Below, piece after piece: positions 24,042-40,034 of a stretch of 56,314 nt of DNA. Position numbers and translations under genes: made by a program. Source of the stretch: a virus (taxonomy: Duplodnaviria > Caudoviricetes); the IMG/VR virus record IMGVR_UViG_3300032282_004923, positions 1 through 56,314 of that record, one strand, 5' to 3'. Below the pieces are notes generated by a model. The model had not been told where the DNA came from. It did not search any database and saw only the letters and a list, made by a program, of their open reading frames with translations. Every line of letters starts with the position of its first letter. The stretch's first letter is position 1.

Positions 24042-24560
24042 AGTTGTCCCTTCGACGTTATAACTAAGACTAGAGGTACATCTAGTTTATATACACTTTT
24101 ACTAGTACTTACTGTTACTACCTTTAGTTTAGGTAGTAAAAGACAAGAAGTTTATTACCCATAAATTCTCTCAGCTTTGCTGAGAAATTTACTGGAGACT
24201 AGTTACTCTTCCTATAGCTGAAAATTACATCGTCCATGCAATTAGAGGCAGCACAAAAGAACCTTGCTGAGTTACAGGCAAAGTAAATTGGAAGGTTTTT
24301 GGCCGGCCTTCGATTGGTGAAGCTCACAAGATACACGAGCTTCGGGTGGTTGTCAAGTCAAGTGACTTAATAACTTTGCAAAGTATATACACGCTCTTCC
24401 GCCACCGTCAACTCCTAACAAGGAATTTTTTGGGCTGTTAGCCCCGGTTGCGCATCTATTGGTGTAAAGTTTTTTTGGGAGGTCTCCCCTTCGCCTCCCA
24501 CGAGTGGGGTGCGGCCGTACAAGTTTTGTAGGTGGCTTGCTACGGCCCCCCACTCACTAC

Positions 24561-25073: not shown

Positions 25074-25113
25074 AGTTTAAAGACTAGTACGTCTCTTCCA
25101 CCACCGTCAAAGG

Positions 25114-25317
25114 CTAGCGAGAAGTTTTTTGTGGAGCCAGGGATTTCTCGCCCTCGATGCATTCCATAATCTGGCTCTTCGACGTGTGAGATTTTTTGTT
25201 TCGACAAACGGGTGCACAACTGAGCGCGACGAATACTTCTATTCGATTGCTGCACTTCGGGCATTTCCAGACGCGTTTGTTTTTTTCCACAGAAGCGATA
25301 ATACATGCATCAGCCAC
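25114..25317 (-). CDS. Small Zn-ribbon protein
   Basis: WKCPKC...PVC...H. Confidence 0.55.
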   Translation of the reverse strand: MADACIIASVEKNKRVWKCPKCSNRIEVFVALSCAPVCRNKKSHTSKSQIMECIEGEKSLAPQKTSR

Positions 25318-25319
25318 TA

Positions 25320-25376
25320 TTAAGCGCTAACCATGATGAAAATAAATATTCCAATGAATCCAATTAGATTACCCAT
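25320..25376 (-). CDS. 18-aa hydrophobic micropeptide MGNLIGFIGIFIFIMVSA
   Basis: TGATG overlap with upstream stop; fills the gap between genes. Confidence 0.55.
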   Translation of the reverse strand: MGNLIGFIGIFIFIMVSA

Positions 25377-25585
25377 CAGCTCGAGGCCTTTAGCTCGTTA
25401 ATCATTTTTAAACCCTTGTAAGCTACTTCGTCCCAGGACTGGCCCATGTATTCTTCGGCGATATCGACGTCACTGACTGGACCGTCCGCAACTTGAACGT
25501 GCAGTGAAATAAGAATAAGCAGCAGAGCTTCTTCAGCTGAGTCCGCCAGGCTAATGGCCGGCGTCTTGATTTTTTTCTTAGTCAT
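25376..25585 (-). CDS. Hypothetical protein
   Basis: 69 aa ORF in operon. Confidence 0.6.
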   Translation of the reverse strand: MTKKKIKTPAISLADSAEEALLLILISLHVQVADGPVSDVDIAEEYMGQSWDEVAYKGLKMINELKASS

Positions 25586-25919
25586 TATGTACCTTCTGAT
25601 GTATAGAGCGAAGAAGTTCTTTTACTTCTTCTTGTTCTTCGTGAGTGAACTTATGTTCGTCGATGATTATCGAGCGCGCTACCAGGGCCGTAATTGTTGG
25701 AACAACTATGAACACTGCGGTAAAAACCAAAAGCATCCCAGCTCCGCGGCCGACGAGAGACCTTGGATATTGGTCTCCGTAGCCGACTGTAGTAAATGTC
25801 ATGAATGCCCACCAAACTGCATCACCAGTTGAGTGGTGCTCCGCTGCCACGTACGCAATTACTGCAGTTACGTAGACGCTAGCCAGGAGCGAGCTTAAAC
25901 GTAGTAGTTGTTTCTTCAT
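25578..25919 (-). CDS. Two-TM potassium channel (KcsA-like)
   Basis: DAVWWAFMTFTTVGYGDQYP selectivity filter between two TM helices. Confidence 0.92.
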   Translation of the reverse strand: MKKQLLRLSSLLASVYVTAVIAYVAAEHHSTGDAVWWAFMTFTTVGYGDQYPRSLVGRGAGMLLVFTAVFIVVPTITALVARSIIIDEHKFTHEEQEEVKELLRSIHQKVHND

Positions 25920-25973
25920 GGGCTAATACTTCCATAGTCTTCCGCCACCGTCAACCGCTAATAACAAAAATAT

Positions 25974-26234
25974 TTAGCGCGCTAGGTTTTTATTATGTGA
26001 AGACACTGACGGATGAGCTGAGCCCACGTTCTCGAGCGTGTCTGAGTTATAAATAGTTTCGCAGCGATTGCATATGTAGTGCACGCCGTCCCATTCCTTA
26101 GGCGTCGGGGGTACATGCATCCCACGTGATGTACAGGTTTCAAACCCGTCACTGCGCGGGTTGTTACCGCACCCACATACAAACCAGTCACTGGATGTTT
26201 CTTTTAAATTCAAGTTCATGCGGACGCCTTTCAT
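25974..26234 (-). CDS. Hypothetical Cys-containing protein
   Basis: CGCGN...CNRC; ATGA overlap; start uncertain. Confidence 0.6.
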   Translation of the reverse strand: MKGVRMNLNLKETSSDWFVCGCGNNPRSDGFETCTSRGMHVPPTPKEWDGVHYICNRCETIYNSDTLENVGSAHPSVSSHNKNLAR

Positions 26235-26374
26235 TCTGAACTCACAAAACCGCACCAGAACCCATGGGCCGTTAGGAGGTCTGCGATTTTATCCAGGCAT
26301 TCACCATCAGTGTGGTCTTCGCCTGGAAGGTTTATGATGCTGGCGATTTCCTTAAGCAGGTCTTCGTTATTCAC
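26231..26374 (-). CDS. 47-aa protein, tandem paralog of 26367..26531
   Basis: GTG start, MNNEDLLKEIASIINLPGEDHTDGECLDKIADLL; absent from the ORF track. Confidence 0.7.
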   Translation of the reverse strand: MNNEDLLKEIASIINLPGEDHTDGECLDKIADLLTAHGFWCGFVSSE

Positions 26375-26531
26375 CTGTATCTCCTGTTCGGTTGATTGTT
26401 GGGTAGACGGGTCCGTAGCCGTTTTGTTCTAGCAGGTCGCAGACCATTTCTAGACACTCGCCATCGGTCGCAAGCTCCCCATCGATGCGCATGATGCGAA
26501 TTATTTCTGCCATTAGCTCTTCTGAGGTCAT
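26367..26531 (-). CDS. Hypothetical protein (TDGECL motif)
   Basis: MTSEELMAEIIRIMRIDGELATDGECLEMVCDLL. Confidence 0.7.
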   Translation of the reverse strand: MTSEELMAEIIRIMRIDGELATDGECLEMVCDLLEQNGYGPVYPTINRTGDTGE

Positions 26532-26687
26532 GTTGGGTTCTCTTCCGTTGTGAATATACAATGCCAGCACGTCATACTAAAGATGTGTTCATCGTCAAGC
26601 ACGACGGCTGATAGTACACCACCCTTTATCAACGTGTCACATTTTATGCAGGTATTCGTGTGATGTGTGAGTTCTTCTTGTTTCATG

Positions 26688-26885
26688 TTAGAGGTCTATA
26701 CTTGTCGTGATGAACGGGAGGACCTTGTCGTCGATAAATATTCGTTCTTCATCAGTGACGTCGCGAAAGATTCCGTCGTCATCCATGGCTTCAGATATTG
26801 ATGAGCTGAAGTTCATGTCTACAAATATTTTGCCGTTATCGTCGACAGTGACGATTACTATAGGGCACAGGACAATCTGTTTCAT
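26688..26885 (-). CDS. Hypothetical protein
   Basis: TAATG overlap with upstream gene. Confidence 0.6.
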   Translation of the reverse strand: MKQIVLCPIVIVTVDDNGKIFVDMNFSSSISEAMDDDGIFRDVTDEERIFIDDKVLPFITTSIDL

Positions 26886-27055
26886 TATTTTACCTTCTTC
26901 TTTTTAGACAGGCAGTTGATGCATGTGTAGATAATGATTGCTGGGGTTACATCGTCTTTGATGTCCAGCGAGCCGTAGTAAGGCTCCCATAGCTTTTTAC
27001 ACCTATGACAGTGTGTGTAGGTAGGAGCTTCGAAGTCGTCTTCGTCGTGGTCCAT
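26885..27055 (-). CDS. 56-aa Zn-finger-like protein
   Basis: MDHDEDDFEAPTYTHCHRC...CINCLSKKKKVK; GGGGG RBS; absent from the ORF track. Confidence 0.65.
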   Translation of the reverse strand: MDHDEDDFEAPTYTHCHRCKKLWEPYYGSLDIKDDVTPAIIIYTCINCLSKKKKVK

Positions 27056-27134
27056 GATTTCCCCCTGGTAAGTAGTTAGTTAGGTATGGGGTGCACGCTA
27101 CACCCAACACCTCAGTTTTCCAATATGACGTTTG

Positions 27135-27356
27135 TCACATCTTGACGAGCACACGATGTTGCTCGACCCATTGCTCTCCACTGCCATTGAGTGGCTTGAC
27201 TAGTAAGTCGAGGTGACCGAAACGAACACGGACGTCGGAGATTTTTACACCGACAGTGAGTCCTTCGATTGACACTGTTCCTACTTCGCCTTTGAAGCGT
27301 TGTGGGTTTAATTCCTCAATTGAGGCTTTGCTATACGTACGTACAGGTTGTTGCAT
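27135..27356 (-). CDS. Hypothetical protein
   Basis: AAGGAG RBS; VKISDVRVRFGHLDLLVKP...GEQWV. Confidence 0.7.
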   Translation of the reverse strand: MQQPVRTYSKASIEELNPQRFKGEVGTVSIEGLTVGVKISDVRVRFGHLDLLVKPLNGSGEQWVEQHRVLVKM

Positions 27357-27558
27357 GTCTGCTCCTTCTTAGCACTCTGATGTGCTGAGTGCTAACGCTA
27401 CCGACTACACCCTGCAAACCACAACCTCTCACGTAGGAAAATCTCGAGGGCCCTCTTCCACCACCGTCCGGTAGTCGAGTAGCCCCGCGGGGGAAGAACC
27501 GGTTCCGGGGCCCCAGAGTTCCGCCGCAGCCGGCTGCCGGAGAAGTAGTGTCAAGGGT

Positions 27559-27948
27559 ATGACAAGTACATCAAAATGGGACAGAAACATAGACGCTTTG
27601 CGGGATTTTGTAGGGAAACACGGTAGTGCCTTGGTTCCAACAGCTCATAAACACGAGTTTGACGGGAAGATTGTTTCTCTCGGAGCTTGGGTGAGCTACT
27701 TGCGTATCAAGTATCGCGGCGGTCTGGTTAGCCCCGATAAGATTTCCCAGTTGGAGTCTTTCCCTGGTTGGTCTTGGGGGCCTTGCAAGCCTGGCCCTCT
27801 CGGTAATCCCGACAGAGACAAGAAGATGATAGAGATGCGCACTAACGGTAGTAGCCTGCAAGCCATCGGTGACGAGTACGGTCTGTCTCGTCAGCGTGTT
27901 CATCAGATACTTGGCAGACTTGGATACAAGGAAAAAACAAATGCGTAA
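27559..27948 (+). CDS. Helicase-associated (HA) domain plus sigma70 region-4-like HTH protein
   Basis: HG...VP...LGAWV...R.KYR.G......LE..PGWSW; SLQAIGDEYGLSRQRVHQI. Confidence 0.8.
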   Translation: MTSTSKWDRNIDALRDFVGKHGSALVPTAHKHEFDGKIVSLGAWVSYLRIKYRGGLVSPDKISQLESFPGWSWGPCKPGPLGNPDRDKKMIEMRTNGSSLQAIGDEYGLSRQRVHQILGRLGYKEKTNA

Positions 27949-28183
27949 CGAGGACTTTCATCGCCCTTACACAAAGTCGGGTGTGTCAGAAGGCAGAGCC
28001 GTAGTGTTAGGAATAATCATTAGTGGGCTTGTCTATGGGCTTACACTTTGGACAACGCTATGGTTTGTCCGTTCGTCAGGTATCGCTTCGTGGCAAATGC
28101 CATTCTGGAAATGCGTTCTTCTGACCGACTTGATAAACGCGCTGCGACTTTACGACCAGCAGGTATTCAGTAAAAAACAGTAG
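27941..28183 (+). CDS. Small membrane protein
   Basis: AAGGA RBS; TM helix. Confidence 0.6.
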   Translation: MRNEDFHRPYTKSGVSEGRAVVLGIIISGLVYGLTLWTTLWFVRSSGIASWQMPFWKCVLLTDLINALRLYDQQVFSKKQ

Positions 28184-28217
28184 GGTCTTCCACCACCGTC
28201 AGGTGGTAGTGATGAGT

Positions 28218-28439
28218 TTATTCTGACTGTCGGAAAACCATCAGCCCTGCGACTGATGAACCTTCGTGCGTTGGGTCTGCGAGTGCAATACCTGTTACCC
28301 ACGCTTCTTTTGGTAGTGGCTGTGTCGGGTCATCGCCTACTATGCCACGCACCTTCTGTATCGCTTCGCTAATCGCTTCGCCGTCTGAGTGTGCTTCCAC
28401 ATCTACGCCGACCATAACTTGTACTCGGTACTTGCTCAT
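28218..28439 (-). CDS. Hypothetical protein
   Basis: MSKYRVQV...VEAHSDGEA; start inferred. Confidence 0.6.
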   Translation of the reverse strand: MSKYRVQVMVGVDVEAHSDGEAISEAIQKVRGIVGDDPTQPLPKEAWVTGIALADPTHEGSSVAGLMVFRQSE

Positions 28440-28528
28440 CGCTGTCTTTCTGCCCGTACCTAAGTGTCGGGTCTTTCTTTTGCTCGCCTCTACGGGCTTC
28501 CTGTGAGCCACTTTCTTTGAGATAGTCA

Positions 28529-28565
28529 GGCAGGTGGGGAGAAAGGGGGTGAAGCCCCACCTGCC
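28529..28565 (-). terminator. Stem-loop after the VWA gene
   Basis: GGCAGGTGGGG...CCCCACCTGCC; no clear U tail. Confidence 0.4.
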
Positions 28566-28580
28566 GACAACTAGCCACAC

Positions 28581-30089
28581 TCAACGATAAGTGAGTGTGT
28601 GACCTGTGCGCTCTTGATAAGTGTTGGCAAGGTGGCTCGGAACGATGCTACGCACCTTCTCGCCCTTGCTCATCGCTTTGAGCATTGCTATCGCTTGTTC
28701 AGGTGTCTCTGCCGTGTAGATACCAAACTGTTTTACGAGTCCGATACATTCCATAACTAAGTCCACTCCCCAACTATCGCCTACGCCCGTGACACCACCA
28801 TCTGTTACCCAGATTAGAGGCGAGTTGGAACGCTGACGCTTAGAGATAGCCCAACGGATAGCAGGCGCATCTACGCCATTGCCACCGTTAGGGTCAGGAA
28901 GGTGACTTACGCACTTTCCCTTGTTAGCGACAACATAAAGGTTGGGCTTATTGCTACGCCCACCTGAATACTGAGCCACGAGAGCCGATGGTGCGTTGAG
29001 TACCATCTCCATTACTTCATCGTGTGACAGGCTCATAGAACCACTTGTGTCAATGAGTACAACTCCACCAGCACCTTTCACAGTACGGTCAAAGATACGC
29101 TTGTCGGGGTCTGTGAGTAGGCGAGACATACGGCGTGGATTACGCCCCATATTGGTAGCGATACGCTTACGCCCTAACGCACCCATTACATTACGGTCTA
29201 GCATCGGTGTGGAAACTTTTAGTTTTTCCCATAGTGCGTCACGAGACTTTTTAGGAATACTGCCACGAGCGTTCCAACCCTTGTTCGCATCTATCCAACC
29301 TTGTCCAGCCTTTTCTAAGGCTTCTTTGGGGTCAGTTGCTTCTGTGCCTTCGCCAGCAGGCTGACCTTGTGGCTGACCACTCGGATTATCCGTGAGTGCG
29401 CCTACTACTTCCTCTACCCACTTGGCGTAGTTTTCTACATAGCCAAATCCCGATAGGTGTATGCGTGAGTGCGTACCACCGAGAGTTTGTACGCCGTGAC
29501 TTTTTATGATGTTGTTGTAATACTCAACACCTTTGTCTGTGATGTAAGTAAGGTACTCCACCCACTCAGGGTGGTGCTTAGATATTCCAGCAAGGTAGTC
29601 GCCGTATCCAGCAGTATTGCGATAGGCAATACAGGTAGCAACGGCGTTCAGAAAGTCACCGTGCTGTGCTGTGCGTTCACCATCTAGGCGTTCACTCCCG
29701 TCACGCAAGTGTGTCTGTGGGTCAAATCCTGAGTGTTCTAAGAGCATATTTACTCGTAGTTCTTCACACACAGTCATTGTCACTTGTTTTGCGTATCCAC
29801 GAGCAATCCACTTGTCAAACTGTTTCGCATTGGGTGAAACTTTTGCGTGAACCATCTCGTGACCACGAATAGTGCGAGAGTGTTCATCGTCATACAACGG
29901 TACAAACATTTCACGGTCTGTCACATTGGTCTTTGGCTCACCACGCTTCGCTTCTACGCCCGTGATGTTCCAACGCTTGTCTTTGCCTGTGTTGTCGTTA
30001 CGACCTAGCATCTCAGGCTCAGGGCTTTGGGGCGTGAACCCCTTAGCCGTTATCTGAGTGCTTATCGGGTCATCTGTTATGCGTGACAT
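28581..30089 (-). CDS. VWA-domain protein with N-terminal HExxH motif (MoxR partner)
   Basis: HEMVH; LIDTSGSMS MIDAS; VTDG. Confidence 0.8.
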   Translation of the reverse strand: MSRITDDPISTQITAKGFTPQSPEPEMLGRNDNTGKDKRWNITGVEAKRGEPKTNVTDREMFVPLYDDEHSRTIRGHEMVHAKVSPNAKQFDKWIARGYAKQVTMTVCEELRVNMLLEHSGFDPQTHLRDGSERLDGERTAQHGDFLNAVATCIAYRNTAGYGDYLAGISKHHPEWVEYLTYITDKGVEYYNNIIKSHGVQTLGGTHSRIHLSGFGYVENYAKWVEEVVGALTDNPSGQPQGQPAGEGTEATDPKEALEKAGQGWIDANKGWNARGSIPKKSRDALWEKLKVSTPMLDRNVMGALGRKRIATNMGRNPRRMSRLLTDPDKRIFDRTVKGAGGVVLIDTSGSMSLSHDEVMEMVLNAPSALVAQYSGGRSNKPNLYVVANKGKCVSHLPDPNGGNGVDAPAIRWAISKRQRSNSPLIWVTDGGVTGVGDSWGVDLVMECIGLVKQFGIYTAETPEQAIAMLKAMSKGEKVRSIVPSHLANTYQERTGHTLTYR

Positions 30090-30097
30090 CTCTCCCC

Positions 30098-30841
30098 CTA
30101 CTTTTGTGTAGAGAGAGAGTTCACGGCAATAGCGTCAATGATGCTTTTGGCGCGTTCGCCAAATACCATAGTCGCCGCCTTTTTTGTTCCGAGTGCTGTA
30201 CGCAACTTGTCAAAGGCGTAGAACGAACGGAGAGAGATACGGCGTTCACCTGCGTCACACATCTGACGAGCGTACTCACGCAAGTCCTCACTCATTTTCA
30301 TTAGTGCTGACGGGTGTGGCTCGTTGATACGGATACACACAGGGAAACGGTCTTTGAGTGCCATCGGCAACTCGTTCATCTGCTCAATGTTTGTCGTCAT
30401 TACAACAGAGAAACCGTCACGGGGTACGACCATCTCACGGGTCTGTGGGTGTTCCCATTGTGCGCTTTCAGGGCTGTCTGTCATTGCTAGTAGTGTTGCG
30501 AACACATCGCCACCAGCCTTGTCAATCTCGTCAATAACAAGACGACCACCTGAGACACCATCTCCACGCCACGCACGGATAGCCTGTCCGTCTAACCACG
30601 ACCACGAACCGTTGTCGTTAGGTTGCCAGCAACCTGTGACATCTGAGTTGGTCATATCGTCAGTACAGATAAGACGGTAAGCACCACTATCGGTGTTTCC
30701 GTAGTTCAGTCCAGCAAAGGTCTTGCCTGTTCCAGCAGTTCCAAACAAGATAAGTCGGTCAATGCCTGCTTCCAGCGCATCGCTTACTTGTTGCCAGCAG
30801 TCGGGCAGTTTGTAGCCCTCTGTTTCTAGTATTGTTGCCAT
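30098..30841 (-). CDS. MoxR/CobS-like AAA+ ATPase
   Basis: GTAGTGKT Walker A, LVIDEID Walker B, TTN, ALKDRF. Confidence 0.9.
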   Translation of the reverse strand: MATILETEGYKLPDCWQQVSDALEAGIDRLILFGTAGTGKTFAGLNYGNTDSGAYRLICTDDMTNSDVTGCWQPNDNGSWSWLDGQAIRAWRGDGVSGGRLVIDEIDKAGGDVFATLLAMTDSPESAQWEHPQTREMVVPRDGFSVVMTTNIEQMNELPMALKDRFPVCIRINEPHPSALMKMSEDLREYARQMCDAGERRISLRSFYAFDKLRTALGTKKAATMVFGERAKSIIDAIAVNSLSTQK

Positions 30842-30877
30842 TGCTTCCCCTTTCGTGGGAGTTAGTAGGTGAGTTTG

Positions 30878-30931
30878 AGTGTAGCCACTTTCTTAGTAGC
30901 ACACAACTTGGTAGCCACTTTCTTAGTGGCT
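30878..30931 (-). promoter_or_regulatory. Promoter TTGTGT-17-TACACT with duplicated GTAGCCACTTTCTTAGT operator
   Basis: Direct repeats at 30881 and 30911. Confidence 0.65.
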
Positions 30932-30937
30932 GTTCTT

Positions 30938-30975
30938 GTATGGGGTGGGGAATATCCGTTACACCCACCCCATAC
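30938..30975 (-). terminator. Stem-loop after gene 30988..31392
   Basis: GTATGGGGTGGG...CCCACCCCATAC. Confidence 0.5.
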
Positions 30976-30987
30976 GAGACTTTATGA

Positions 30988-31392
30988 CTAGGCGACCTGC
31001 GCTTTGTCGGTGGACTTGGACTTAGCATCGGGAGAGATGTTGTAGGTACGCACCTGTGAGTAGGTGGTGACGGTGGTGACTTCATCGGCAACGCTCTGCT
31101 CAATGATGATGCCAACGGCTTTCTCAAAGAGGTCTGCGTCAATGACGGTCTTTGTGACCTTCTTGTAGATAGCAGGCTTCACGAGCATTGCCAACTTGTC
31201 TGCGTCAAAGGCACGGCGTGTGCCTGTGATGATGCTGACCTGAACGCCATCTATGACGCTCTCTGTCAATCCAGCAGTTGCTAACGCCTTACGGAGTTCT
31301 GTCTCTGCTTCTTTCTTTGCCTTTTCTGCCTGTGCGCTTTCCTCTTTTGCGAGTAAGTAAGCACGGGTGGCTTGGTCTATGGATAGTGCCAT
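30988..31392 (-). CDS. Hypothetical phage protein (N-terminal coiled coil)
   Basis: GAAAGGGG RBS; two tandem upstream promoters. Confidence 0.75.
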   Translation of the reverse strand: MALSIDQATRAYLLAKEESAQAEKAKKEAETELRKALATAGLTESVIDGVQVSIITGTRRAFDADKLAMLVKPAIYKKVTKTVIDADLFEKAVGIIIEQSVADEVTTVTTYSQVRTYNISPDAKSKSTDKAQVA

Positions 31393-31832
31393 TGTGTTCC
31401 CCTTTCATTGGGACTTGTAGGTGACAAGGAACAAGTTACAAGTGGTAAGGCAAAAACACAAGTTATTTCTTTGTGTCTTTTGTCACACTCACAGGGCTTG
31501 TTCGCTGTATGAGTTGTAAAGGTACAGGTGACAAGGCGCAATAGCAAGTCTTTTGTTTGTGTCGTTTGTCACAGGCTCGGCAGGTGGAGATGGGGTGAAC
31601 AGGGAGAGAGAAAGAGTTGCTTAGAGATACTGACTTCCACCACCGTCGTAGTAGTCGGAGCCCCGCCCGCCGCTGCCGCCCGCGGGGCTTCCAGCCAGAT
31701 GTCTGTGATGTCCAGCATCACGAAACTGACTTGTCGTGAGTGTGTGACAACTGCCACAAAGAAATAACTTGCTATTTATTACTATGACTTGTAAGGTACA
31801 AAGCGTACATCTATCCCACGAAAGGGGACATA

Positions 31833-32291
31833 ATGGAAAATCCAATGGTGGACACGGCTTCCCGTGCCAACACCGAAATCAAGGAAGGTGGCTCACGGTT
31901 CCAAATGGAATACGGAGTTATCTTTGCTATTACATCTGAGGGCTTTCGCACCTTACTCACTAACGAGGACATTTACGAAGGGCTACACGCCGTACAAGGT
32001 ATGACGCTTCTTCCTGATGAACTCGGTATTGGTCTTGTCTCAACAGGTTGGGCTTCACCAATCCCACCTGACTTTGACGGTGACGAAGATGAGATAACTG
32101 CGCCAAGCCAACACCCTGAGAAACGCCGTGTGCGCCTTGTGACTTGTGTGGACAAGTCGTTGCGTATGGGTTCTGCCTTGTGTTTCCAAGACGACCCTGA
32201 CGAAATGATTACTGACGAAGGTCAAGCAACAGGCAATCTCGCTATCGCCGTGCGTAACTCACTTATTGCTATGCTTGCTAAGGCTGAATAG
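31833..32291 (+). CDS. Hypothetical protein
   Basis: GAAAGGGG RBS; GWASP...PSQHPEKRRVRL. Confidence 0.8.
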   Translation: MENPMVDTASRANTEIKEGGSRFQMEYGVIFAITSEGFRTLLTNEDIYEGLHAVQGMTLLPDELGIGLVSTGWASPIPPDFDGDEDEITAPSQHPEKRRVRLVTCVDKSLRMGSALCFQDDPDEMITDEGQATGNLAIAVRNSLIAMLAKAE

Positions 32292-32310
32292 CCACCAAGC
32301 AAGTTTCACT

Positions 32311-32355
32311 AGAAGCCCCACCAACTCTCGGACACGACAAGTTGGTGGGGCTTCT
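32311..32355 (+). terminator. Intrinsic terminator
   Basis: AGAAGCCCCACCAACT...AGTTGGTGGGGCTTCT after stop codon. Confidence 0.7.
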
Positions 32356-32477
32356 TGCTGTACCCAAACAGAAGGTTCTTCCACCACCGTCGTTGTAGTA
32401 GCGCAATCTCTGGGGCTGGTAGCCCCGGGGTTTTATTCCCAGATGGCATCTGGTTCTGGGAGTGTGTGTTGGGCAAT

Positions 32478-32526
32478 AAAAAAGCCCGTTGAGTACGCCA
32501 GCGTGAAGCGCACCCAACGGGCTTTT
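32478..32526 (-). terminator. Intrinsic (possibly bidirectional) terminator
   Basis: AAAAGCCCGTTG...CAACGGGCTTTT. Confidence 0.75.
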
Positions 32527-32538
32527 ACTTAGTGAGGG

Positions 32539-32598
32539 CTAATCAAACGCCCACAATAAGAACAGTAGGAAGATGATGATGATGAAGCCAAATGTCAT
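32539..32598 (-). CDS. 19-aa hydrophobic micropeptide MTFGFIIIIFLLFLLWAFD
   Basis: ATGA overlap; last ORF before terminator. Confidence 0.6.
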   Translation of the reverse strand: MTFGFIIIIFLLFLLWAFD

Positions 32599-32840
32599 TT
32601 TGGTAACCCTGTGTAAGCAACAATCTCCCACAGTTTCTTTGCGTGTATCTGCTTTGCGAGGTCAAGAAGTACAGACATCATTCGTTCGTCTGTAAGACCG
32701 TGCTGTAAGAAAGACCCATCTACCGTTTCGTAGAGAATGGTCATAAGAGCATCACCCCCAGTCGCATCTAGCGTGTAGTAGTTCTCGTCAAAGAGTTCTA
32801 CCAGTTCTTCGTTTGTTAGGTCTGATAGTTCTGTTGTCAT
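32595..32840 (-). CDS. Hypothetical protein
   Basis: ATGA overlap. Confidence 0.65.
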   Translation of the reverse strand: MTTELSDLTNEELVELFDENYYTLDATGGDALMTILYETVDGSFLQHGLTDERMMSVLLDLAKQIHAKKLWEIVAYTGLPK

Positions 32841-33058
32841 TCCAATACTGTCCAATCATCTTCGCTGCGAATAAGTCCAAGAGTAGAGCCACTATCCCAC
32901 TTTATGTGGAATGTGCCTAAGTCGTCTATGTCGGTAATGACACCTTCATCCCCTTTGGAGAGTTTGGTGAACGGGTCGGATGAATAGTTGAGGCGCACTC
33001 GCTTTCCAACAAGTGCGCCACGCAACCAATCTTTTGTGAGTTCAGTAATCTTGTTCAT
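32837..33058 (-). CDS. DUF4314-like protein
   Basis: G.RVRL....DP...L..GDEG.I..IDD.GT.HI.WD.GS.LGL...ED. Confidence 0.8.
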   Translation of the reverse strand: MNKITELTKDWLRGALVGKRVRLNYSSDPFTKLSKGDEGVITDIDDLGTFHIKWDSGSTLGLIRSEDDWTVLE

Positions 33059-33642
33059 TAGCAAATCTGAAATCCACCACAGTTCGCGAGAAATGTTACG
33101 AACTGACGGATGTTGTCTTTGTCAATGTGGTAGTCCTTGGCGAAAGGCTTTTGCCCACCGGAACCGTTACAGGCATTACATTCTTTGACTTGCTCAATCC
33201 AGCCTTCTGCTAATTCTAAATCTTTGTAAGCAGGAAGCCTGTCCTCGTGTGTGAGTGTATCCATAAGACTGAACTCGTAAGCAGGAACTTGGGTTACCTC
33301 GCCAGCAGTTGCTTTGGGGTTTATGTGCCAAGTGCGCTGACCAGTTGCCTTACAATGAGGGCAGGGGCGAATAGGCAACGCCTCTATTTCTGCGTCACGG
33401 TCTGCTATGTACTTGTCTGCTGTTCCGTCACGCAAAGATTTACGCAGAGCCTTTGCTAGAAGCACAGAGTCGTCTCCGTCAAGCCCGTCACCATCGTTGC
33501 TGTATGCGAACTCCACCAACTCGGTGAGGTCGGGTGCGACAAACTCGCAGTATTCCCACAAGGGTCGCCACCACCATACATTGTTACGGAAGTACGCACC
33601 TTTTTCATTCTTTGGTTCTACACCAAATACATCCATTCCCAT
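33058..33642 (-). CDS. Hypothetical protein with DnaJ-like CxxCxGxG motifs
   Basis: MGMDV...YFRNNVWWWRPLW...CPHCKATG...CNACNGSG...GGFQIC. Confidence 0.75.
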   Translation of the reverse strand: MGMDVFGVEPKNEKGAYFRNNVWWWRPLWEYCEFVAPDLTELVEFAYSNDGDGLDGDDSVLLAKALRKSLRDGTADKYIADRDAEIEALPIRPCPHCKATGQRTWHINPKATAGEVTQVPAYEFSLMDTLTHEDRLPAYKDLELAEGWIEQVKECNACNGSGGQKPFAKDYHIDKDNIRQFVTFLANCGGFQIC

Positions 33643-33944
33643 TGGATACCCCTTTCATTAGGTGTGTTGAGTGTACCTGACACATAGCAGTAGTCAAGAG
33701 TTTTCTTTGTGTCGTTTGTCACACTTGTACAAGTTGTTGTACAAGTCCAGTAGTGGGTGTTACCTGATTAGATAACACAGTCAAGTTCAGAAGGGGGGGT
33801 CATCCGCCACCGTCGTAGTTCTCGGCTGCCCCGGAAAGAAAAACCCCGCCGCGGGGCTAACCCCTTCACCCTTCGCAGAAGCGTCCCTGATAGGCACACA
33901 TTTACACAACTTGCCTGAGACTTTCCTGTGTGACGAAAGACACA

Positions 33945-33973
33945 TTGACAAGTTGTTGCTTATTCCCTACACT
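33945..33973 (+). promoter_or_regulatory. Sigma70-type promoter TTGACA-17-TACACT
   Basis: Near-consensus hexamers directly after operator 33929-33944. Confidence 0.8.
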
Positions 33974-34007
33974 TACCACTACCTACTAATACCCAAGGGG
34001 GGTAACA

Positions 34008-34577
34008 ATGGAAGAAATACCAACACCACAAGAAGTGGTTGAGTTCGTAGCCGAAAAAGCAAAGTTTGCTAAGTACGCTTGGTGTGAGGACAATGAAGGA
34101 ATGGCTGACGCACCACCTCTGCTTATGGGGCAGTTCCCTGACGGCACAGGTTTCATTATGCCTGACCTTATGGAAGGACACCCTTCCGATACTCTGCCTG
34201 TGTTGCTATCTGCTTTGATAGAGGCAATGGAAGAACACAACGGTACTGCCGAATACTCTTGGCTCGCTTATGTCGTAGAGGGCTACTATCGCCCCCAAAC
34301 AGACGAGATGCCTGACGGCTGGAAGCGTGGAGACTTAGAGCAGGAATACAAGACCAACCCAGTATCAGATGTTCGTGAGGGCATCATTGTTACTGTGTAC
34401 CCTTGGGACGGCGAGAGCCACGCCAAGACCATTCCTGTAAGTGTCGGAGACAACGGTCTGCCCGTGTTCGGTGACATCTCTGACGAGGGCATCGGCATCG
34501 GTGGTGGAGTAATCCCCACCATCTTTGAGGGCTTTCGCAAGTTCTGTGGGATAAAAGTAAGCGCACAGAACAACTAA
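34008..34577 (+). CDS. Hypothetical protein
   Basis: AAGGGGGG RBS; own promoter and terminator. Confidence 0.8.
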   Translation: MEEIPTPQEVVEFVAEKAKFAKYAWCEDNEGMADAPPLLMGQFPDGTGFIMPDLMEGHPSDTLPVLLSALIEAMEEHNGTAEYSWLAYVVEGYYRPQTDEMPDGWKRGDLEQEYKTNPVSDVREGIIVTVYPWDGESHAKTIPVSVGDNGLPVFGDISDEGIGIGGGVIPTIFEGFRKFCGIKVSAQNN

Positions 34578-34588
34578 GTTCCCCCAAC

Positions 34589-34627
34589 AAAGGGGTCGTC
34601 TGCTGAAAGGTGGGCGACCCCTTTTTT
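34589..34627 (+). terminator. Intrinsic terminator
   Basis: AAGGGGTCGTCTGC...GTGGGCGACCCCTTTTTT. Confidence 0.8.
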
Positions 34628-34707
34628 GCTGTCTAAGAACAAGTCATCCACCACCGTCAAAGTAGTAGCGCATTGCTATCGCATCGCAGCCCCGGTAAGA
34701 TATCCAG

Positions 34708-34917
34708 ATGAGTAGTTATGCGATGTTCCGTTGTGTGTTTTGTGACAATCCACTAAATGTTGGAGACTCAACTGTTATGAAACAGGTTGTTTGTTGGGTG
34801 CGTTCTGATAACAACACATCTCCCAAGGGGGCGCAAAGCCAACATCGCTATGCTCACGCAGTTTGTTTAGAGGTGGAACTCCACAGCAAGCCTAAACAGG
34901 CAGAAACTTTGTTCTAA
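34708..34917 (+). CDS. Small Zn-binding hypothetical protein
   Basis: CVFC...HAVC. Confidence 0.55.
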   Translation: MSSYAMFRCVFCDNPLNVGDSTVMKQVVCWVRSDNNTSPKGAQSQHRYAHAVCLEVELHSKPKQAETLF

Positions 34918-34967
34918 CTAATAGCGACTACGGCAAAAGCGATAATCAAGATAACAATAAAAGTCAT
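34914..34967 (-). CDS. 17-aa hydrophobic micropeptide MTFIVILIIAFAVVAIS
   Basis: ATGA overlap; similar to three other peptides in the window. Confidence 0.7.
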   Translation of the reverse strand: MTFIVILIIAFAVVAIS

Positions 34968-35392
34968 TGGTGCGCCTTGCGCCAGCCACCATTGCCATCT
35001 CCGAGATACACGATGCTTTCTGTTCCCTCGGTAAGCCAAGTCCAACACCAGCGACAGCAAGAAGGAACTTCTGTCCCTGTACCCATGTTATTCGGGTGGC
35101 AACCACGGTCACCCATCTTTTCTGCCAGCAACGGGAATGTCGTAAGGAACTTTACAACGCAATCGTGACACAGCCACCAATGCTCATACTCGTCTCCCCC
35201 GATAAGAACGCCGATGTCGTCATCAAAGCCGTTGTAGTAACCGAAGTGTTTATGTGGCAAGAACCAACCCGATGGGGCTGGCTCTGCTAACTGTTCTCCC
35301 GAACGGAGCGTGATGAGATGTTTGTTGTAGGTTTCCCCACACGCTGAACAATCAACCGTTGTAGGAATAGGTGTTGTATCCGTAAGGGTCAT
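34964..35392 (-). CDS. Hypothetical Cys-rich protein
   Basis: CSAC...GYYNGFDD...LCHDC...CCRWCW; start inferred. Confidence 0.65.
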   Translation of the reverse strand: MTLTDTTPIPTTVDCSACGETYNKHLITLRSGEQLAEPAPSGWFLPHKHFGYYNGFDDDIGVLIGGDEYEHWWLCHDCVVKFLTTFPLLAEKMGDRGCHPNNMGTGTEVPSCCRWCWTWLTEGTESIVYLGDGNGGWRKAHQ

Positions 35393-35561
35393 AGACCGTT
35401 GTACTCGTTTCGCAAGGGTAGTGATAATACTCGCAGTCGGGGAGACCTTGCTTTTCGTCCCCGATAGAGCCAATAAGAATGAGTGTCGCACCGATGAGGC
35501 TTACCCAAAAGACAAAGCGTACGCAAGAGCGAACTGTGTAATAGACGGGTGGGTGGTTCAT
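35352..35561 (-). CDS. Small membrane protein, paralog of 39572..39754
   Basis: YYTVRSCVRFVFW...PDCE..H.PCE..TT.YDPYG. Confidence 0.75.
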   Translation of the reverse strand: MNHPPVYYTVRSCVRFVFWVSLIGATLILIGSIGDEKQGLPDCEYYHYPCETSTTVYDPYGYNTYSYNG

Positions 35562-35644
35562 CTGTCATCTCCTGCGAGAATGATTGCCATAAGAAAGACA
35601 AGCCCGAGAGGCAGACTCATAATGACTGCGAGTAGAACTTTCAT
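35558..35644 (-). CDS. 28-aa membrane peptide MKVLLAVIMSLPLGLVFLMAIILAGDDR
   Basis: ATGA overlaps at both ends. Confidence 0.6.
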   Translation of the reverse strand: MKVLLAVIMSLPLGLVFLMAIILAGDDR

Positions 35645-35937
35645 TTGACCACCAACACTTTTTCCATCTTTTCCATAAACTTTTTCATCACACGTATTTG
35701 GTCTTTGCCAGCCCAGCCGTACTCACCTGCGTTTACCCACCAGTTGCATTCGGCAAGCATCCCCCAAAGAACGAACTGAGTGGTCTCTACGCAGACGGTG
35801 CGCCTGTTGCGCCACTTGACCTCTAATGGGTGCTTGATGTCGTTTGACTCGTCGTAGCGCATATCGTCAAGAATGCGTGACTCCCACTCGTGAAACAGAT
35901 TGTTGCTGACCGTGAAGGTGATGAGAGGTGACTGCAT
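35641..35937 (-). CDS. Hypothetical protein (probably leaderless)
   Basis: ATG 6 nt after the TACCTT -10 hexamer. Confidence 0.65.
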   Translation of the reverse strand: MQSPLITFTVSNNLFHEWESRILDDMRYDESNDIKHPLEVKWRNRRTVCVETTQFVLWGMLAECNWWVNAGEYGWAGKDQIRVMKKFMEKMEKVLVVK

Positions 35938-35943
35938 AACTAC

Positions 35944-35972
35944 AAGGTACAGGGTGTAAGGCGTAATGTCAA
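35944..35972 (-). promoter_or_regulatory. Sigma70-type promoter TTGACA-17-TACCTT
   Basis: Adjacent to operator 35973-35988. Confidence 0.75.
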
Positions 35973-36307
35973 TATGACATTTGTCACAGGGTGGAGAAGC
36001 AAGAGAGGGAGTGAGTAAATAGAAAGGGGGCGACAAGAGAGAGAGTTCTTCCACCACCGTCGTTCTAGTCGGAGTCCCGCGTTGCGCAGCGGCTTGCCGG
36101 GGCTGCCATCTTCCTGCTGCGGCAGCGGCGCATGGAAACTTGACTTGGCTTGCAGTTCGTGTTACTTTGACGCTATGAAGTTTGTAGTCATACTTGTAAT
36201 AGCCTTTATCGTTGTGGGCATGGGGTGACAAAAGACACACTTTTAGTATTTGACTAATGGCTACTAACTTGGTAGCCTGACATTCTCAACTCACAAAAGG
36301 GGGAATC

Positions 36308-36664
36308 ATGACCGATTCTGTCATTGAGTGGGAGGGGATAAGCAATACCTCTGAGGATTGGCAGTGGGATATGGCGACAGACTTGTTCGCCATGACCGCC
36401 GAAGTGCTCATTGCTCATAATGAGGAACTCAACGAAGGCGACACTTGGTGGCGTGTTCAGGGTTTCCCGTTGTGGGGCGGTGGGCGTGACGGCATATTCC
36501 GCGCTGACAGTCCAATGGAGTTGTTGGAAAAGATTACCGTTCGTTCGGATTGGTCATTGCGCTACACGCTTGACTCCGAAACAATGGTACTCACTTGTCA
36601 CCTCTCTCACCACGATGCAAGCGGGCAGTTCACGGTGCAGGCAACGCCTAATCCTGACCGCTAA
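36308..36664 (+). CDS. Hypothetical protein
   Basis: G-rich RBS; own promoter and terminator; SHHD motif. Confidence 0.8.
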   Translation: MTDSVIEWEGISNTSEDWQWDMATDLFAMTAEVLIAHNEELNEGDTWWRVQGFPLWGGGRDGIFRADSPMELLEKITVRSDWSLRYTLDSETMVLTCHLSHHDASGQFTVQATPNPDR

Positions 36665-36681
36665 TCCAACCAACCACAAGC

Positions 36682-36712
36682 AAGCCCGTCTCCGTAAGGG
36701 GGCGGGCTTTTT
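36682..36712 (+). terminator. Intrinsic terminator
   Basis: AAGCCCGTCTCC-GTAA-GGGGGCGGGCTTTTT. Confidence 0.85.
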
Positions 36713-37086
36713 GCGTTGTCTCCACTCTTGCGCTTGCTGTCATCCGCCACCGTCGTAGTAGTAACTGGGACATCGGCAGCCCCGCTACCCGATGTCCCAG
36801 GTGTGCCACGTCGCCTGGTTTGAACGTGAGCGTTTCGTGTTTGAAAAAATAAAAACTGAGAAAACTGCAAAAAAGAAACAAAAAGTTGGAGAAAAGTAAA
36901 ACTTTTAGCGAAAAACTTGAAAAAACAAAAGTTTGTTGCTATGTTGCATCCCCGTTTTCACGTAGCAACCGGCTTCGTGCGCGCGAGTCCCGATACGGCG
37001 AGCTCGCTCGCGGGGCTTCGGCACGGCTCGTCGCCCTTCGTCGCCGCCGCTGCCAGTCCTTCGTTGCGCCTGTGACAACTGCCACA

Positions 37087-37115
37087 TTGACATTGTCGCC
37101 TGCACCCTGTACCAT
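37087..37115 (+). promoter_or_regulatory. Sigma70-type promoter TTGACA-17-TACCAT
   Basis: Directly after operator 37071-37086. Confidence 0.8.
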
Positions 37116-37121
37116 ACAAGT

Positions 37122-37499
37122 ATGAGAGGGGGTGAAATGAAACTAACAAATACCGAACTGTCGCTAATCGCATTACGCAACGCTGACCGTTCAGGTCGTG
37201 AGTGCGACCCGCACGAAGTTATCGCTCAAATGGGCAAGATGAACTTTTTCGCGGTGTGCGGTGGTAAGTGGGCAAAGATAAACGCTAGTGATGGCGTGAC
37301 TATCGGCTTACTGATGCCGTGCGGAGAAAGTCGTGCGGTTGAGGTGATACTCAACTTCTTAGACCTTTACGAAGTGCGCCGTGTGCGCCGTGTGAATCGT
37401 GGCGATGCAAAAGGCTCGCTAGTCGTTGAGTACGAAGTGCTTGATGTCTATTGCGAGAATCTAGGCGATGCTGTCTATTCCGCTTCCTGCTGGAAGTAA
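37122..37499 (+). CDS. Hypothetical protein
   Basis: Start 37122 or 37137; DLYEV...DVYCENL. Confidence 0.8.
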   Translation: MRGGEMKLTNTELSLIALRNADRSGRECDPHEVIAQMGKMNFFAVCGGKWAKINASDGVTIGLLMPCGESRAVEVILNFLDLYEVRRVRRVNRGDAKGSLVVEYEVLDVYCENLGDAVYSASCWK

Positions 37500-37527
37500 T
37501 CCAACCCAACAACCCAACTAACCGAGT

Positions 37528-37560
37528 GCGCCCGTTCCCGAAAGGGGGCGGGCGTTTCTT
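37528..37560 (+). terminator. Intrinsic terminator
   Basis: GCCCGTTCCC-GAAA-GGGGGCGGGC followed by GTTTCTT. Confidence 0.8.
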
Positions 37561-37752
37561 GTTGTGTGCCATCTTCCGCCACCGTCGTAGTAGTAACAGC
37601 GCTGAGCCTTGCAGCCCCGCTGGTTTTTGTTTCCCAGTCAGGTTGCGAAGAAGGGCGTGTGGGGCTTTGAGATGTGACAAAAGAGTGCTTGCTTTTCTTT
37701 GCTGGTGCTTGTACCCTACACCTGTTACCTAACTATCCCTAAGGGGGGTCAA

Positions 37753-38166
37753 ATGCCAACAGTAGATTATGACGGAATACAGATGATGTATGAGTCAGAC
37801 ATAAACAAGTCAGAGAGTGGTCTTATGGAGTCACTTATTGACGCTGTCAAAGATGGCGAGTTATCGCCTTTCGTCTTCACGATGGAGTGGTCTATCTGTG
37901 ACTACTGCCGTGGTGGTGGTGGACACTCTCGCCGTTTCGGTGCGATGACATCAGATGAGTTCGCAGAGTGGAGCGATGAGTCTCGTGAGGCGTATATGCG
38001 TGGTGCTTACGATGAGCGTTGCGATGCGTGTAACGGTCAAGGCAAAGTTTACGAGATGAACGAGAAAGACCTGCCCGAGGAAGTCCAAGAGTACATCGGG
38101 CGATATCGCTCAGACGCTTACGAGTCTGCTTCCACCTCAGCAATGGAACGCCGTTTCGGTTGCTAG
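37753..38166 (+). CDS. Hypothetical protein with CxxCxGxG Zn-finger motifs
   Basis: CDYCRGGG...YMRGAYDERCDACNGQG...ERRFGC. Confidence 0.8.
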   Translation: MPTVDYDGIQMMYESDINKSESGLMESLIDAVKDGELSPFVFTMEWSICDYCRGGGGHSRRFGAMTSDEFAEWSDESREAYMRGAYDERCDACNGQGKVYEMNEKDLPEEVQEYIGRYRSDAYESASTSAMERRFGC

Positions 38167-38222
38167 TGGTTACCGTTGCGCTCATCATTAGTATCGCCGT
38201 CTTAGCCGTAGCCATTTCCTAG
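38166..38222 (+). CDS. 18-aa hydrophobic micropeptide MVTVALIISIAVLAVAIS
   Basis: TAGTG overlap; sits before terminator; paralogous. Confidence 0.65.
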   Translation: MVTVALIISIAVLAVAIS

Positions 38223-38237
38223 TCACCCGACCAAGAG

Positions 38238-38277
38238 AGGTCGCCTGCCCTTAGAACGGGGGTGGGCGACCTTTTTT
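38238..38277 (+). terminator. Intrinsic terminator
   Basis: AGGTCGCCTGCCC...GGGTGGGCGACCTTTTTT. Confidence 0.8.
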
Positions 38278-38814
38278 GCGTACCCGTAGAGGCATCTGTA
38301 AGGCTCGCAGAGGCGAGATAACCATTGCTTGCTCATATCCGTACCCCAACAACTACCGAGGGCTTTTGAGTCGCAGAGTAATCCAGTTGGGGTTTGTCTT
38401 CCACCACCGTCGTAGTAGTGAGAGGTGGGTCTGGCAGTCCCGACTGCCAGACCCAGATGTCCCAGTCTTCTGGGGGAAAGACGATGCGTGGGATTCGGAC
38501 ATTAAGTTTTTATAAAAACCAACTCAAAAAAACAAAAGTTTGACGAAAAAAGAAAAAAAACTTAAAAACTTTGAGGAAAAACTTGAAAAAGAACGAACGC
38601 TTCGCTAGGGTTTGCCCGTTTCGCCCGTGCGAGCGCGCGAGTCCCGTTGGAGCGGGTTTCCCCGCGGGACTACCCAGAGGCCCCCGGCCGCAGCTCGAGC
38701 TTAGGTTTGGCGGCCGCAGCTCGAGCTCGGATTATCAAACCAGGTGTGTCAAATGTCACTGTGTTGTTGCGCCTTATAGGCTGTACCATCTACCTCTTCT
38801 AAAGAAAGGTATCT

Positions 38815-39018
38815 ATGCCGGAGTTTTATCCGGAAGAAACCAAACACCAAAAGTCAAAAAGGTTTAGTAACTCATCAGGAAAGATGGTCAAAGCATTTAG
38901 CCACACAAAGTGTGGTCGGTGCGACACCATAATTGTTGAGGGAACAGAATGTGTTTGGCTTCGCAGTAAAGGTTGCTTCCATAAACAGGGCGAGTGCCCA
39001 CCCAAAGAAGACCGATGA
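38815..39018 (+). CDS. Small Zn-binding hypothetical protein
   Basis: CGRC..I..G...W.....H...C. Confidence 0.7.
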   Translation: MPEFYPEETKHQKSKRFSNSSGKMVKAFSHTKCGRCDTIIVEGTECVWLRSKGCFHKQGECPPKEDR

Positions 39019-39068
39019 CTATTTTAATTATCGTTCTCATTGCAGTAATAGTTGTAGCGATGTCCTAG
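39015..39068 (+). CDS. 17-aa hydrophobic micropeptide MTILIIVLIAVIVVAMS
   Basis: ATGA overlap; sits before terminator; paralogous. Confidence 0.7.
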   Translation: MTILIIVLIAVIVVAMS

Positions 39069-39093
39069 CCCCCCAAGGACATTGCTCTTACAG

Positions 39094-39129
39094 AAAGACC
39101 CCGTGCTAAAAAGTGCGGGGTTTTTCTTT
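39094..39129 (+). terminator. Intrinsic terminator
   Basis: ACCCCGTGC...GTGCGGGGTTTTTCTTT. Confidence 0.75.
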
Positions 39130-39571
39130 GTCTTCCGCCACCGTCGTAGTAGTAACTGCTCCCTTCGGAAGCCCCGCTTTCCGAAGGGAGTGTCGCTCAG
39201 CGCACGTTCGCCGTCGCTAAAAGGAACTTCGCAAAAAAAATAAAACTCAAAAACTTTGTTTTCTCGTCAAAAAAGTCAGAAAAAGAGAAAAAGTTGCGAA
39301 ACAAACTTGACAAATGAAAAAAACTTGTTATGTTGCTGGCTTGCGGGGGGGTGTGTCACAGTTTTGCCATCTTCCGCGCGGGAGCCCCGTTACTACTCTC
39401 GAGTAGTAACGGGACTATGAAGCCCTCAGCCAGAAACTTGCTGGGGCGAGGAACTGCGTTCTTTCTTTTCTTGCGTGTTGGCGGCTGCGTGAAAGTAAAA
39501 AAAGAAATGCTTGACTTTTGTTTGTGTGGGGTGTACCTTGTAAGCAGGTGGAGACCTACCCGAAAGGAACT

Positions 39572-39754
39572 ATGTACTACTTTGTGCGCTCTTGCGTGCG
39601 GTGGTTGTTTTGGACGGTCATAATCTCAGCATTTTGGCTCGCCATCATCACCTACACAAACAATTACACAGAAAAAATACCTGACTGTGAGTTAGGGCAT
39701 TTTCCGTGTGAAGCACCAACAACAATTTATGACCCATACGGAATGGGGGGGTAA
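39572..39754 (+). CDS. Small membrane protein, paralog of 35352..35561
   Basis: GAAAGGA RBS; upstream TTGACT-17-TACCTT promoter at 39511. Confidence 0.75.
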   Translation: MYYFVRSCVRWLFWTVIISAFWLAIITYTNNYTEKIPDCELGHFPCEAPTTIYDPYGMGG

Positions 39755-39810
39755 TGGAAATAGTAATAATCATTTTATCGGTAGCGTTTTTAGCAGTCTC
39801 AATCAGTTAG
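39754..39810 (+). CDS. 18-aa hydrophobic micropeptide MEIVIIILSVAFLAVSIS
   Basis: TAATG overlap, G-rich RBS, sits before terminator. Confidence 0.7.
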   Translation: MEIVIIILSVAFLAVSIS

Positions 39811-39818
39811 AAGCCAAT

Positions 39819-39854
39819 AAAAAAGGCGCACTCGTTACTGGGTGCGTCTTTTTT
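39819..39854 (+). terminator. Intrinsic (possibly bidirectional) terminator
   Basis: AAAAAAGGCGCACTC...GGGTGCGTCTTTTTT. Confidence 0.8.
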
Positions 39855-40034
39855 AGTGCTCAAAATCAACTGGACTTAGCAGTCCCGCTCGCTCCGTTAC
39901 AATCTTCCACTCATTACGCATTTTGCTACTTGGGGCTTTGCCTCCAAGAAAGCAAAAAACTTCATGTCGTTACAGATGTAACTTCGCTCGCAGTCTGCTC
40001 GTTCACTCTACGAGTGAACTTCGCAGCCCCGTTA

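Follow-up and report, generated by a model that had tools for sequence, protein, structure and literature searches.

A family of short hydrophobic micropeptide genes in one region of an uncultured phage genome fragment and its relatives

The 56,314-base linear sequence analyzed here (the window) is the whole of the IMG/VR virus record IMGVR_UViG_3300032282_004923, a fragment of the genome of an uncultured phage with an estimated completeness of 38%. It carries seven open reading frames (ORFs), each encoding a hydrophobic peptide of 17–19 residues. These micropeptide ORFs are far more numerous than expected by chance, the family to which they belong is conserved in four clades of related phages, and selection acts on the peptide and not on the DNA. 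Judged from the sequences, the micropeptide genes are probably real and translated, and would encode single-helix membrane micropeptides that act jointly or on one shared target.

Micropeptide ORFs in the window

A sequence-only reading of the window, made before the present analysis, had listed six of these ORFs. All six are present with matching translations, the start codon of one of them (38166) being corrected from ATG to GTG. A scan of ORFs of 12–35 residues revealed a seventh member at 36175–36228 on the plus strand, whose peptide closely resembles those of 34914 and 39015. The members, named hereafter by their lower coordinate, are as follows.

25320–25376, minus strand: micropeptide ORF, 18 residues, Gly-rich; start overlaps the stop of 25376–25585; operon-internal, followed by ORF 25306–25070
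32539–32598, minus strand: micropeptide ORF, 19 residues; ATGA overlap with the upstream gene; terminator downstream
34914–34967, minus strand: micropeptide ORF, 17 residues; ATGA overlap; final ORF of a minus-strand unit
36175–36228, plus strand: micropeptide ORF, 17 residues; stand-alone, probably leaderless; just 5' of a strongly conserved promoter
38166–38222, plus strand: micropeptide ORF, 18 residues from GTG (20 from an in-frame TTG at 38160); TAGTG junction with 37753–38166; terminator 16 nucleotides past the stop
39015–39068, plus strand: micropeptide ORF, 17 residues; ATGA overlap with the 67-residue Cys-rich gene 38815–39018
39754–39810, plus strand: micropeptide ORF, 18 residues; TAATG junction with 39572–39754; G-rich Shine-Dalgarno-like run 3–9 nucleotides upstream

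All seven fall between 25.3 and 39.8 kb, within one 15-kb region. The grand average of hydropathy (GRAVY) is 2.4–3.1 in six of them; the lowest values belong to 32539 (2.39) and 25320 (below 2.2), the two weakest members by composition.

The overlap of each start with the stop codon of the preceding gene, pointed out in the sequence-only reading, holds for all six ORFs listed there: counted from the micropeptide start, the upstream stop has its first base at −2 or +1, giving the junctions TGATG, TAGTG, TAATG and ATGA. The geometry of coupled cistrons, with the start overlapping or abutting the upstream stop, is thus found in six of the seven members, while 36175 has no upstream gene. The same reading placed five of its six ORFs last in their transcription units, which was confirmed, 25320 being the internal one. 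Four of these five unit-final ORFs are followed by a terminator hairpin 11–26 nucleotides past the stop, and the fifth, 34914, by a convergent gene. Four ORFs end in V-[AS]-[IM]-S-TAG, as had also been reported, with the codons differing each time. TAG is the stop codon of five of the seven members, as compared with 14 of 54 ORFs of at least 120 residues; this preference was not seen in members from the other clades.

The number of such ORFs was compared with that in Markov shuffles of order 1, 2 and 3 (100 each), counting ORFs of 15–20 residues with an ATG or GTG start and a GRAVY of at least 2.5. Six qualifying ORFs were observed in the window, five of them family members, against shuffle means of 0.11, 0.06 and 0.14, and never more than one in a shuffle. 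The ORF 7275–7334 (plus strand) was considered as a member and rejected as an artefact, an off-frame reading of a tandem 9-nucleotide repeat inside gene 7058–7834.

Conservation in relatives and selection on the peptide

A search with the window helicase as the query yielded 13 viral contigs with 74–78% protein identity, and a search with the 67-residue gene upstream of 39015 yielded 13 contigs, adding a further clade. Four clades were delineated, the window and C1 (L012), C2 (L019) and C3 (L039/G002), with 24 representative micropeptide members. The representatives of C1–C3 each contain five or six ORFs of 15–21 hydrophobic residues in the equivalent region; in the helicase-related contigs and the 75-kb record G002, three to six micropeptide ORFs occupy the same region and follow orthologous upstream genes. 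In the 75-kb record (74,950 bases), six family-like ORFs lie at 3.4–19.1 kb, and three dissimilar ones are spread over the other 55 kb. A control, the 41.9-kb stretch of Arthrobacter phage Ottawa, gave one unrelated match.

The upstream genes orthologous between clades encode two Cys-rich proteins, one of 67 and one of about 130 residues, a 60-residue membrane/Cys protein and a protein of 86–105 residues. A micropeptide ORF follows the 67-residue gene in all 13 viral contigs and in all seven metagenome loci, two sets that partly overlap. Counterparts of 39754 follow the orthologous 60-residue membrane/Cys gene in C1, C2 and C3, those of 34914 follow the orthologous Cys-rich gene in L009, L012, L013 and L015, and those of 32539 are located after the orthologous upstream gene in L012 (1502–1549) and L015 (1295–1351). 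The stand-alone ORF 36175 is kept at the same place in three clades, as revealed by alignment with five relatives, and has a counterpart in C3 as well; the promoter just 3' of it is nearly invariant. A search for related loci found no relatives of the gene upstream of 25320, and the positional counterpart of 25320 in C3 (L039, 3382–3435, minus strand), located ahead of the homologous downstream gene, was identified via that downstream gene.

Another 17-codon ORF, containing His, Tyr and Cys, was noticed in these relatives on the minus strand (L019, 3377–3430; L020, 3366–3419; L039, 14507–14560). It lies about 70 nucleotides downstream of a micropeptide ORF with an ATGA or GTGA junction and differs by one or two changes between C2 and C3. 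No counterpart was noticed in the window.

The comparison across relatives proposed as a check in the sequence-only reading gave a coding-like pattern of substitutions. Within same-length orthologous groups, 28, 8 and 35 variable sites fall at the first, second and third codon positions, respectively, and no stops or frameshifts were seen. Twenty-nine synonymous and 32 non-synonymous events were counted, with 26 of the latter exchanging one hydrophobic residue for another. An alignment of the 67-residue gene cassette from four clades showed the gene itself to be well conserved, and the invariant T columns inside the micropeptide are second codon positions.

Paralogues within one genome are alike in peptide and not in DNA. 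Different codons stand behind 276 of the 384 identical residues in within-genome paralogue pairs, which rules out the family being a DNA repeat; in the window, paralogue pairs have 7–9 residues in common, 5–8 of them through different codons. The residue order is also constrained. Ala occupies one of residues 8–11 in 19 of the 24 members, a frequency reached by five of 2000 residue-order shuffles, and a second small residue recurs close to the C terminus. All 24 members are free of internal charges, with I, V, L, A and F accounting for about 80% of residues, so that each peptide is an uninterrupted uncharged hydrophobic stretch, whose length of 15–21 residues is at the lower limit for a bilayer helix. 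The diversified family of hydrophobic micropeptide genes envisaged in the sequence-only reading is thus real, coupled to upstream genes and under protein-level selection.

Shine-Dalgarno-like runs precede 13 of the 24 members. In three clades the stand-alone member 36175 has a −10-like TAnnnT hexamer 6–8 nucleotides before the ATG, which suggests that its messenger RNA is leaderless.

Within-genome likeness, rival explanations and mode of action

Mean identity is 0.408 for within-genome paralogues (61 pairs). Positional orthologues (22 pairs), with a mean of 0.279, are no more alike than other pairs (193), whose mean is 0.266, the residue-order shuffle baseline being 0.24. None of 2000 label permutations reached 0.408. 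Since the codons of the paralogues are scrambled, recent gene conversion is an unlikely cause of this likeness, and the simplest reading would be shared selection, imposed by a common partner or by mutual assembly. Because the lineage-specific pattern is kept despite the scrambled codons, joint action or a shared target is the best fit. A more specific version, according to which each lineage keeps a matched set of five to seven micropeptides, held by selection and not by gene conversion and assembling with each other or on a lineage-specific target, can be offered only tentatively, and we regard it as rather unlikely.

Several observations weigh against translated single-helix micropeptides with a joint action or a shared target. 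The four clades are few and related, and counts across them are not independent events. Peptides of 16–18 residues are short for a bilayer-spanning helix, 25320 is atypical in its Gly-rich composition, and the gene upstream of 38166 has no relatives among the viral contigs searched. Codon usage gives the window ORFs weak and mixed scores, between −0.19 and +0.41 bits per codon, with a model trained on 16 long ORFs that is too weak for ORFs of 17 codons. The within-genome pattern could in principle arise from some constraint other than a common partner. Finally, third positions identical between clades number 63 of 207 in the micropeptides vs. 491 of 1008 in the upstream genes; in the three closest pairs the upstream gene retains 47/69, 44/67 and 69/94 identical third positions and the micropeptide 5/15, 1/15 and 5/15. 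This divergence exceeds what selection on the peptide alone explains; modules may have been exchanged, or sequences this short may have been misaligned.

The first alternative is that the peptides are lineage-specific exclusion or recognition factors. Their shared pattern would then follow a membrane target peculiar to the phage lineage, for instance the ejection machinery of its kin, and superinfection by related phages would be blocked. The genome-specific sequence pattern, the faster divergence of orthologues as compared with neighboring genes and the apparent placement of the genes for early expression would all be in line with such a function; as the pattern rests on four related clades and the target is only hypothetical, we consider it improbable. 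Known early phage proteins that provide superinfection exclusion at the host membrane include Imm of T4 and gp15 of HK97. The micropeptides are likened to them by description only, as putative early phage products that would act at the host membrane, and differ in being several times shorter and multi-copy, whereas Imm and gp15 are single-copy. More generally, the superinfection exclusion and host takeover suggested in the sequence-only reading are possible roles.

If the micropeptide ORFs were instead cis-acting tails, a ribosome translating up to the terminator would tune termination, read-through or the stability of the messenger RNA 3' end, and the peptide would be a by-product. Indeed, 12 of the 24 members stop 2–26 nucleotides before a terminator hairpin, and in C1 and C3, where this distance may be as short as 2–8 nucleotides, the terminating ribosome would, given the size of its footprint, cover the 5' arm of the stem. 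The other 12 members, however, have no terminator within 75 nucleotides, the stand-alone member precedes a promoter, 25320 is operon-internal, and the stop-to-stem distance varies, reaching 26 nucleotides. The same figures argue against a regulatory leader or arrest peptide, for which a constant position relative to an RNA structure is expected. Moreover, a pure spacer would have no need of a central Ala, a complete lack of charges and paralogue likeness achieved through different codons, and the tail function is accordingly quite unlikely. The description of the family as closing the cassettes, given in the sequence-only reading, stands for the 12 members with a terminator and fails for the others, including the stand-alone one.

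The size and hydrophobicity of the peptides also recall Ibs-type type I toxins, and toxin-antitoxin modules of this type would make the cassettes addictive. IbsC is a 19-residue peptide consisting almost entirely of a transmembrane helix, and small type I toxins plausibly oligomerize in the membrane and depolarize it (PMC12648545, in the portion of the text drawn on here). On the same portion of that text, these Escherichia coli toxins of 18–19 residues resemble the micropeptides in being mostly one hydrophobic helix and in having several paralogues per genome. Kinship is, however, not indicated. The Pfam model Ibs_toxin (PF13956), run against all six frames of the window, has no match at E ≤ 10, although it gives an E. 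coli control genome a score above the cut-off. A crude consensus scan for promoters shows none in antisense orientation next to any of the seven members. Unlike toxins of the IbsC type, which are separately repressed and encoded on the enterobacterial chromosome, the micropeptides are cistrons of putative early operons in a phage whose host is probably an actinobacterium: six of the seven starts overlap an upstream stop, and some have good Shine-Dalgarno-like runs, indicating that the members are not separate genes with silenced translation. Five to seven copies in the early region, with no sign of lysogeny, likewise do not fit such modules. The Ibs resemblance noted in the sequence-only reading is thus limited to size and hydrophobicity, the proposed cassette addiction finds no support, and a type I system is very unlikely.

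Given the weak codon-usage scores and lengths far below the limits of gene callers, the ORFs might have arisen by chance or belong to a U-periodic element, RNA or DNA, with no coding function. The approximately 50-fold excess over shuffles, the preservation of start, stop and length in four clades and the confinement of all seven members to one 15-kb region make this explanation highly unlikely, and the period-3 pattern with invariant T at second positions has no known RNA rationale. Least credible of all is a role as C-terminal membrane anchors that programmed frameshifting or read-through of the stop would attach to the upstream protein. ATGA junctions do set the micropeptide in the −1 frame, and a G-GGA-AAA-like heptamer is present at one C1 junction. 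However, a slippery heptamer is lacking at most junctions, the position of the upstream stop with respect to the start ranges among orthologues from −14 to +5, and one member lacks an upstream gene. Homologues of the 67-residue protein form seven clusters, all 67–73 residues long and none fused (lengths of 36–118 residues were searched).

For the micropeptides as jointly acting membrane peptides, the following route of expression and action can be proposed. The genes would be transcribed early by the host RNA polymerase from sigma-70-like promoters. Translation could start by re-initiation where the start overlaps the upstream stop, or with the aid of a Shine-Dalgarno-like run in the last part of the upstream gene; in 36175 it could start on a leaderless messenger RNA. 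Since peptides this short would be finished inside the ribosome tunnel, their entry into the membrane would be post-translational. The five to seven paralogues of one genome could then work together, for example as an oligomer leaking ions in the way of small type I toxins, or could have as their shared target a helix in some membrane protein, whether of the host or of the phage, to which they bind.

A precedent for such insertion is the 27-residue protein YohP, which is recognized by the signal recognition particle and inserted post-translationally (PMC7549839, as far as the portion cited here describes it). The phage micropeptides would likewise be too short for recognition during translation; YohP differs in being a chromosomal stress protein and about 10 residues longer.

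Binding to a larger membrane protein is characteristic of the single-helix proteins MgrB, AcrZ, KdpF, CydX and MgtS, which are 29–49 residues long, single-copy and encoded next to the partner gene, CydX by the last cistron of its operon. The phage peptides would share with them the single helix and, with some such as CydX, the operon-final position, and differ in having 15–21 residues, five to seven paralogues and unrelated small Cys-rich genes upstream. No description of such a micropeptide family was found in open-access papers and preprints.

Cassette organization, probable host and significance

The partner genes and terminators associated with the micropeptides, and the region containing them, are listed below.

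38815–39018, plus strand: partner gene, 67 residues, Cys-rich; no Pfam or PHROG match
39572–39754, plus strand: partner gene, 60 residues; single hydrophobic segment and Cys residues
37753–38166, plus strand: partner gene, 137 residues; two CxxCxGxG-like motifs; DnaJ_CXXCXGXG at E 0.0011 and 19.7 bits, under the 32.7-bit cut-off
34964–35491, minus strand: partner gene, Cys-rich; true start probably internal; orthologue ORFs of 131–210 residues; no family match
38239–38280, plus strand: intrinsic terminator after 38166–38222; 12-bp stem with nine G-C pairs, T run
39092–39127, plus strand: intrinsic terminator after 39015–39068
39822–39860, plus strand: terminator after 39754–39810; A run before and T run after, possibly bidirectional
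32480–32520 (approximate), minus strand: terminator after 32539–32598
24395–39145, plus strand: putative early-gene region, the context of the micropeptides; 14 same-strand copies of TCTTCCRCCACCGTC

Besides 37753–38166, several partner genes are likewise small and Cys-rich. Searches of Pfam and PHROGs with ten neighboring ORFs gave no family assignment, the only signal being the sub-threshold DnaJ zinc-finger match listed above.

The plus-strand cassettes at 36.7–39.9 kb have a common order. Each begins with a 15-nucleotide motif with a hairpin, followed by an A-rich stretch with the first promoter, a GC-rich segment of 120–150 nucleotides, a second promoter with a TGTGACA-type palindrome and one small gene, and ends, sometimes after a micropeptide gene, with a terminator. 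The motif, TCTTCCRCCACCGTC, occurs in 14 copies between 24395 and 39145, all on the plus strand, vs. 0.21 expected; three relatives (G001–G003) contain 11, 17 and 15 copies, on a single strand in each. In the plus-strand cassettes it is located 3' of the terminator and is predicted to remain unpaired; next comes a stable hairpin (z −3.9 and −2.8), in which a AGCCCCGCT-like loop is conserved. The arrangement is similar to that of boxA/boxB antitermination sites. Read as its reverse complement, TCTTCCRCCACCGTC provides, at 25094 and 25938, a −35 box (TTGACG) together with the spacer, some 20 nucleotides before minus-strand starts. A minus-strand coding motif was considered for TCTTCCRCCACCGTC and rejected, because in several copies the frame encoding D-G-G-G-R stays open for only 14–26 codons, and the flanking sequences are unlike one another.

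The GC-rich segments between two promoter-like sites (36946–37080, 38600–38740 and 39336–39480, plus strand) have a common 42-nucleotide repeat (family D17). The third segment alone folds more stably than its shuffles (z −2.3), the values for the others being −0.5 and −0.7, and no Rfam match to these segments was found. Small RNAs or 5' leaders may be encoded here. Repeats of TTTGTCACA and TGTGACA (families D5, D6, D15, D16 and D18) adjoin promoter-like sites at 31459–35988 and resemble operators through which one repressor would control the early cassettes together.

Searches with the window DNA and a 502-residue protein revealed no close relatives among deposited phage genomes. The host is probably an actinobacterium, as the sequence-only reading had assumed: the window encodes two WhiB-family proteins scoring over the Pfam cut-off (46853–47047 and 22461–22652), and the nearest cultured-phage helicases to its SNF2 helicase are those of Arthrobacter phages (32–36% identity). 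To our knowledge, WhiB proteins are confined to actinobacteria and their phages. An Rfam search of the window detected transfer RNA only. The window also contains a full-length tryptophan halogenase gene (2509–4005, plus strand, Pfam E 4.6e-101), an unusual auxiliary gene for a phage.

Genes as short as those of the micropeptides are under the limit of every gene caller, and in this way a family present in several copies and conserved among abundant environmental phages has been left unannotated. As an example from nature of selection at the protein level on a peptide of 16–18 residues the family is a clean one, and it has the unusual pattern of within-genome paralogues that are alike in peptide and unlike in DNA. 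If each lineage does keep a matched set, this set would constitute a fast-evolving membrane "code" for the exclusion or recognition of related phages, or a multi-subunit pore of 16-residue helices. Joint action in the membrane, if it occurs, would place the peptides among the smallest phage effectors known, and they would offer a compact system for the study of helix-helix recognition and of phage action on the host membrane.

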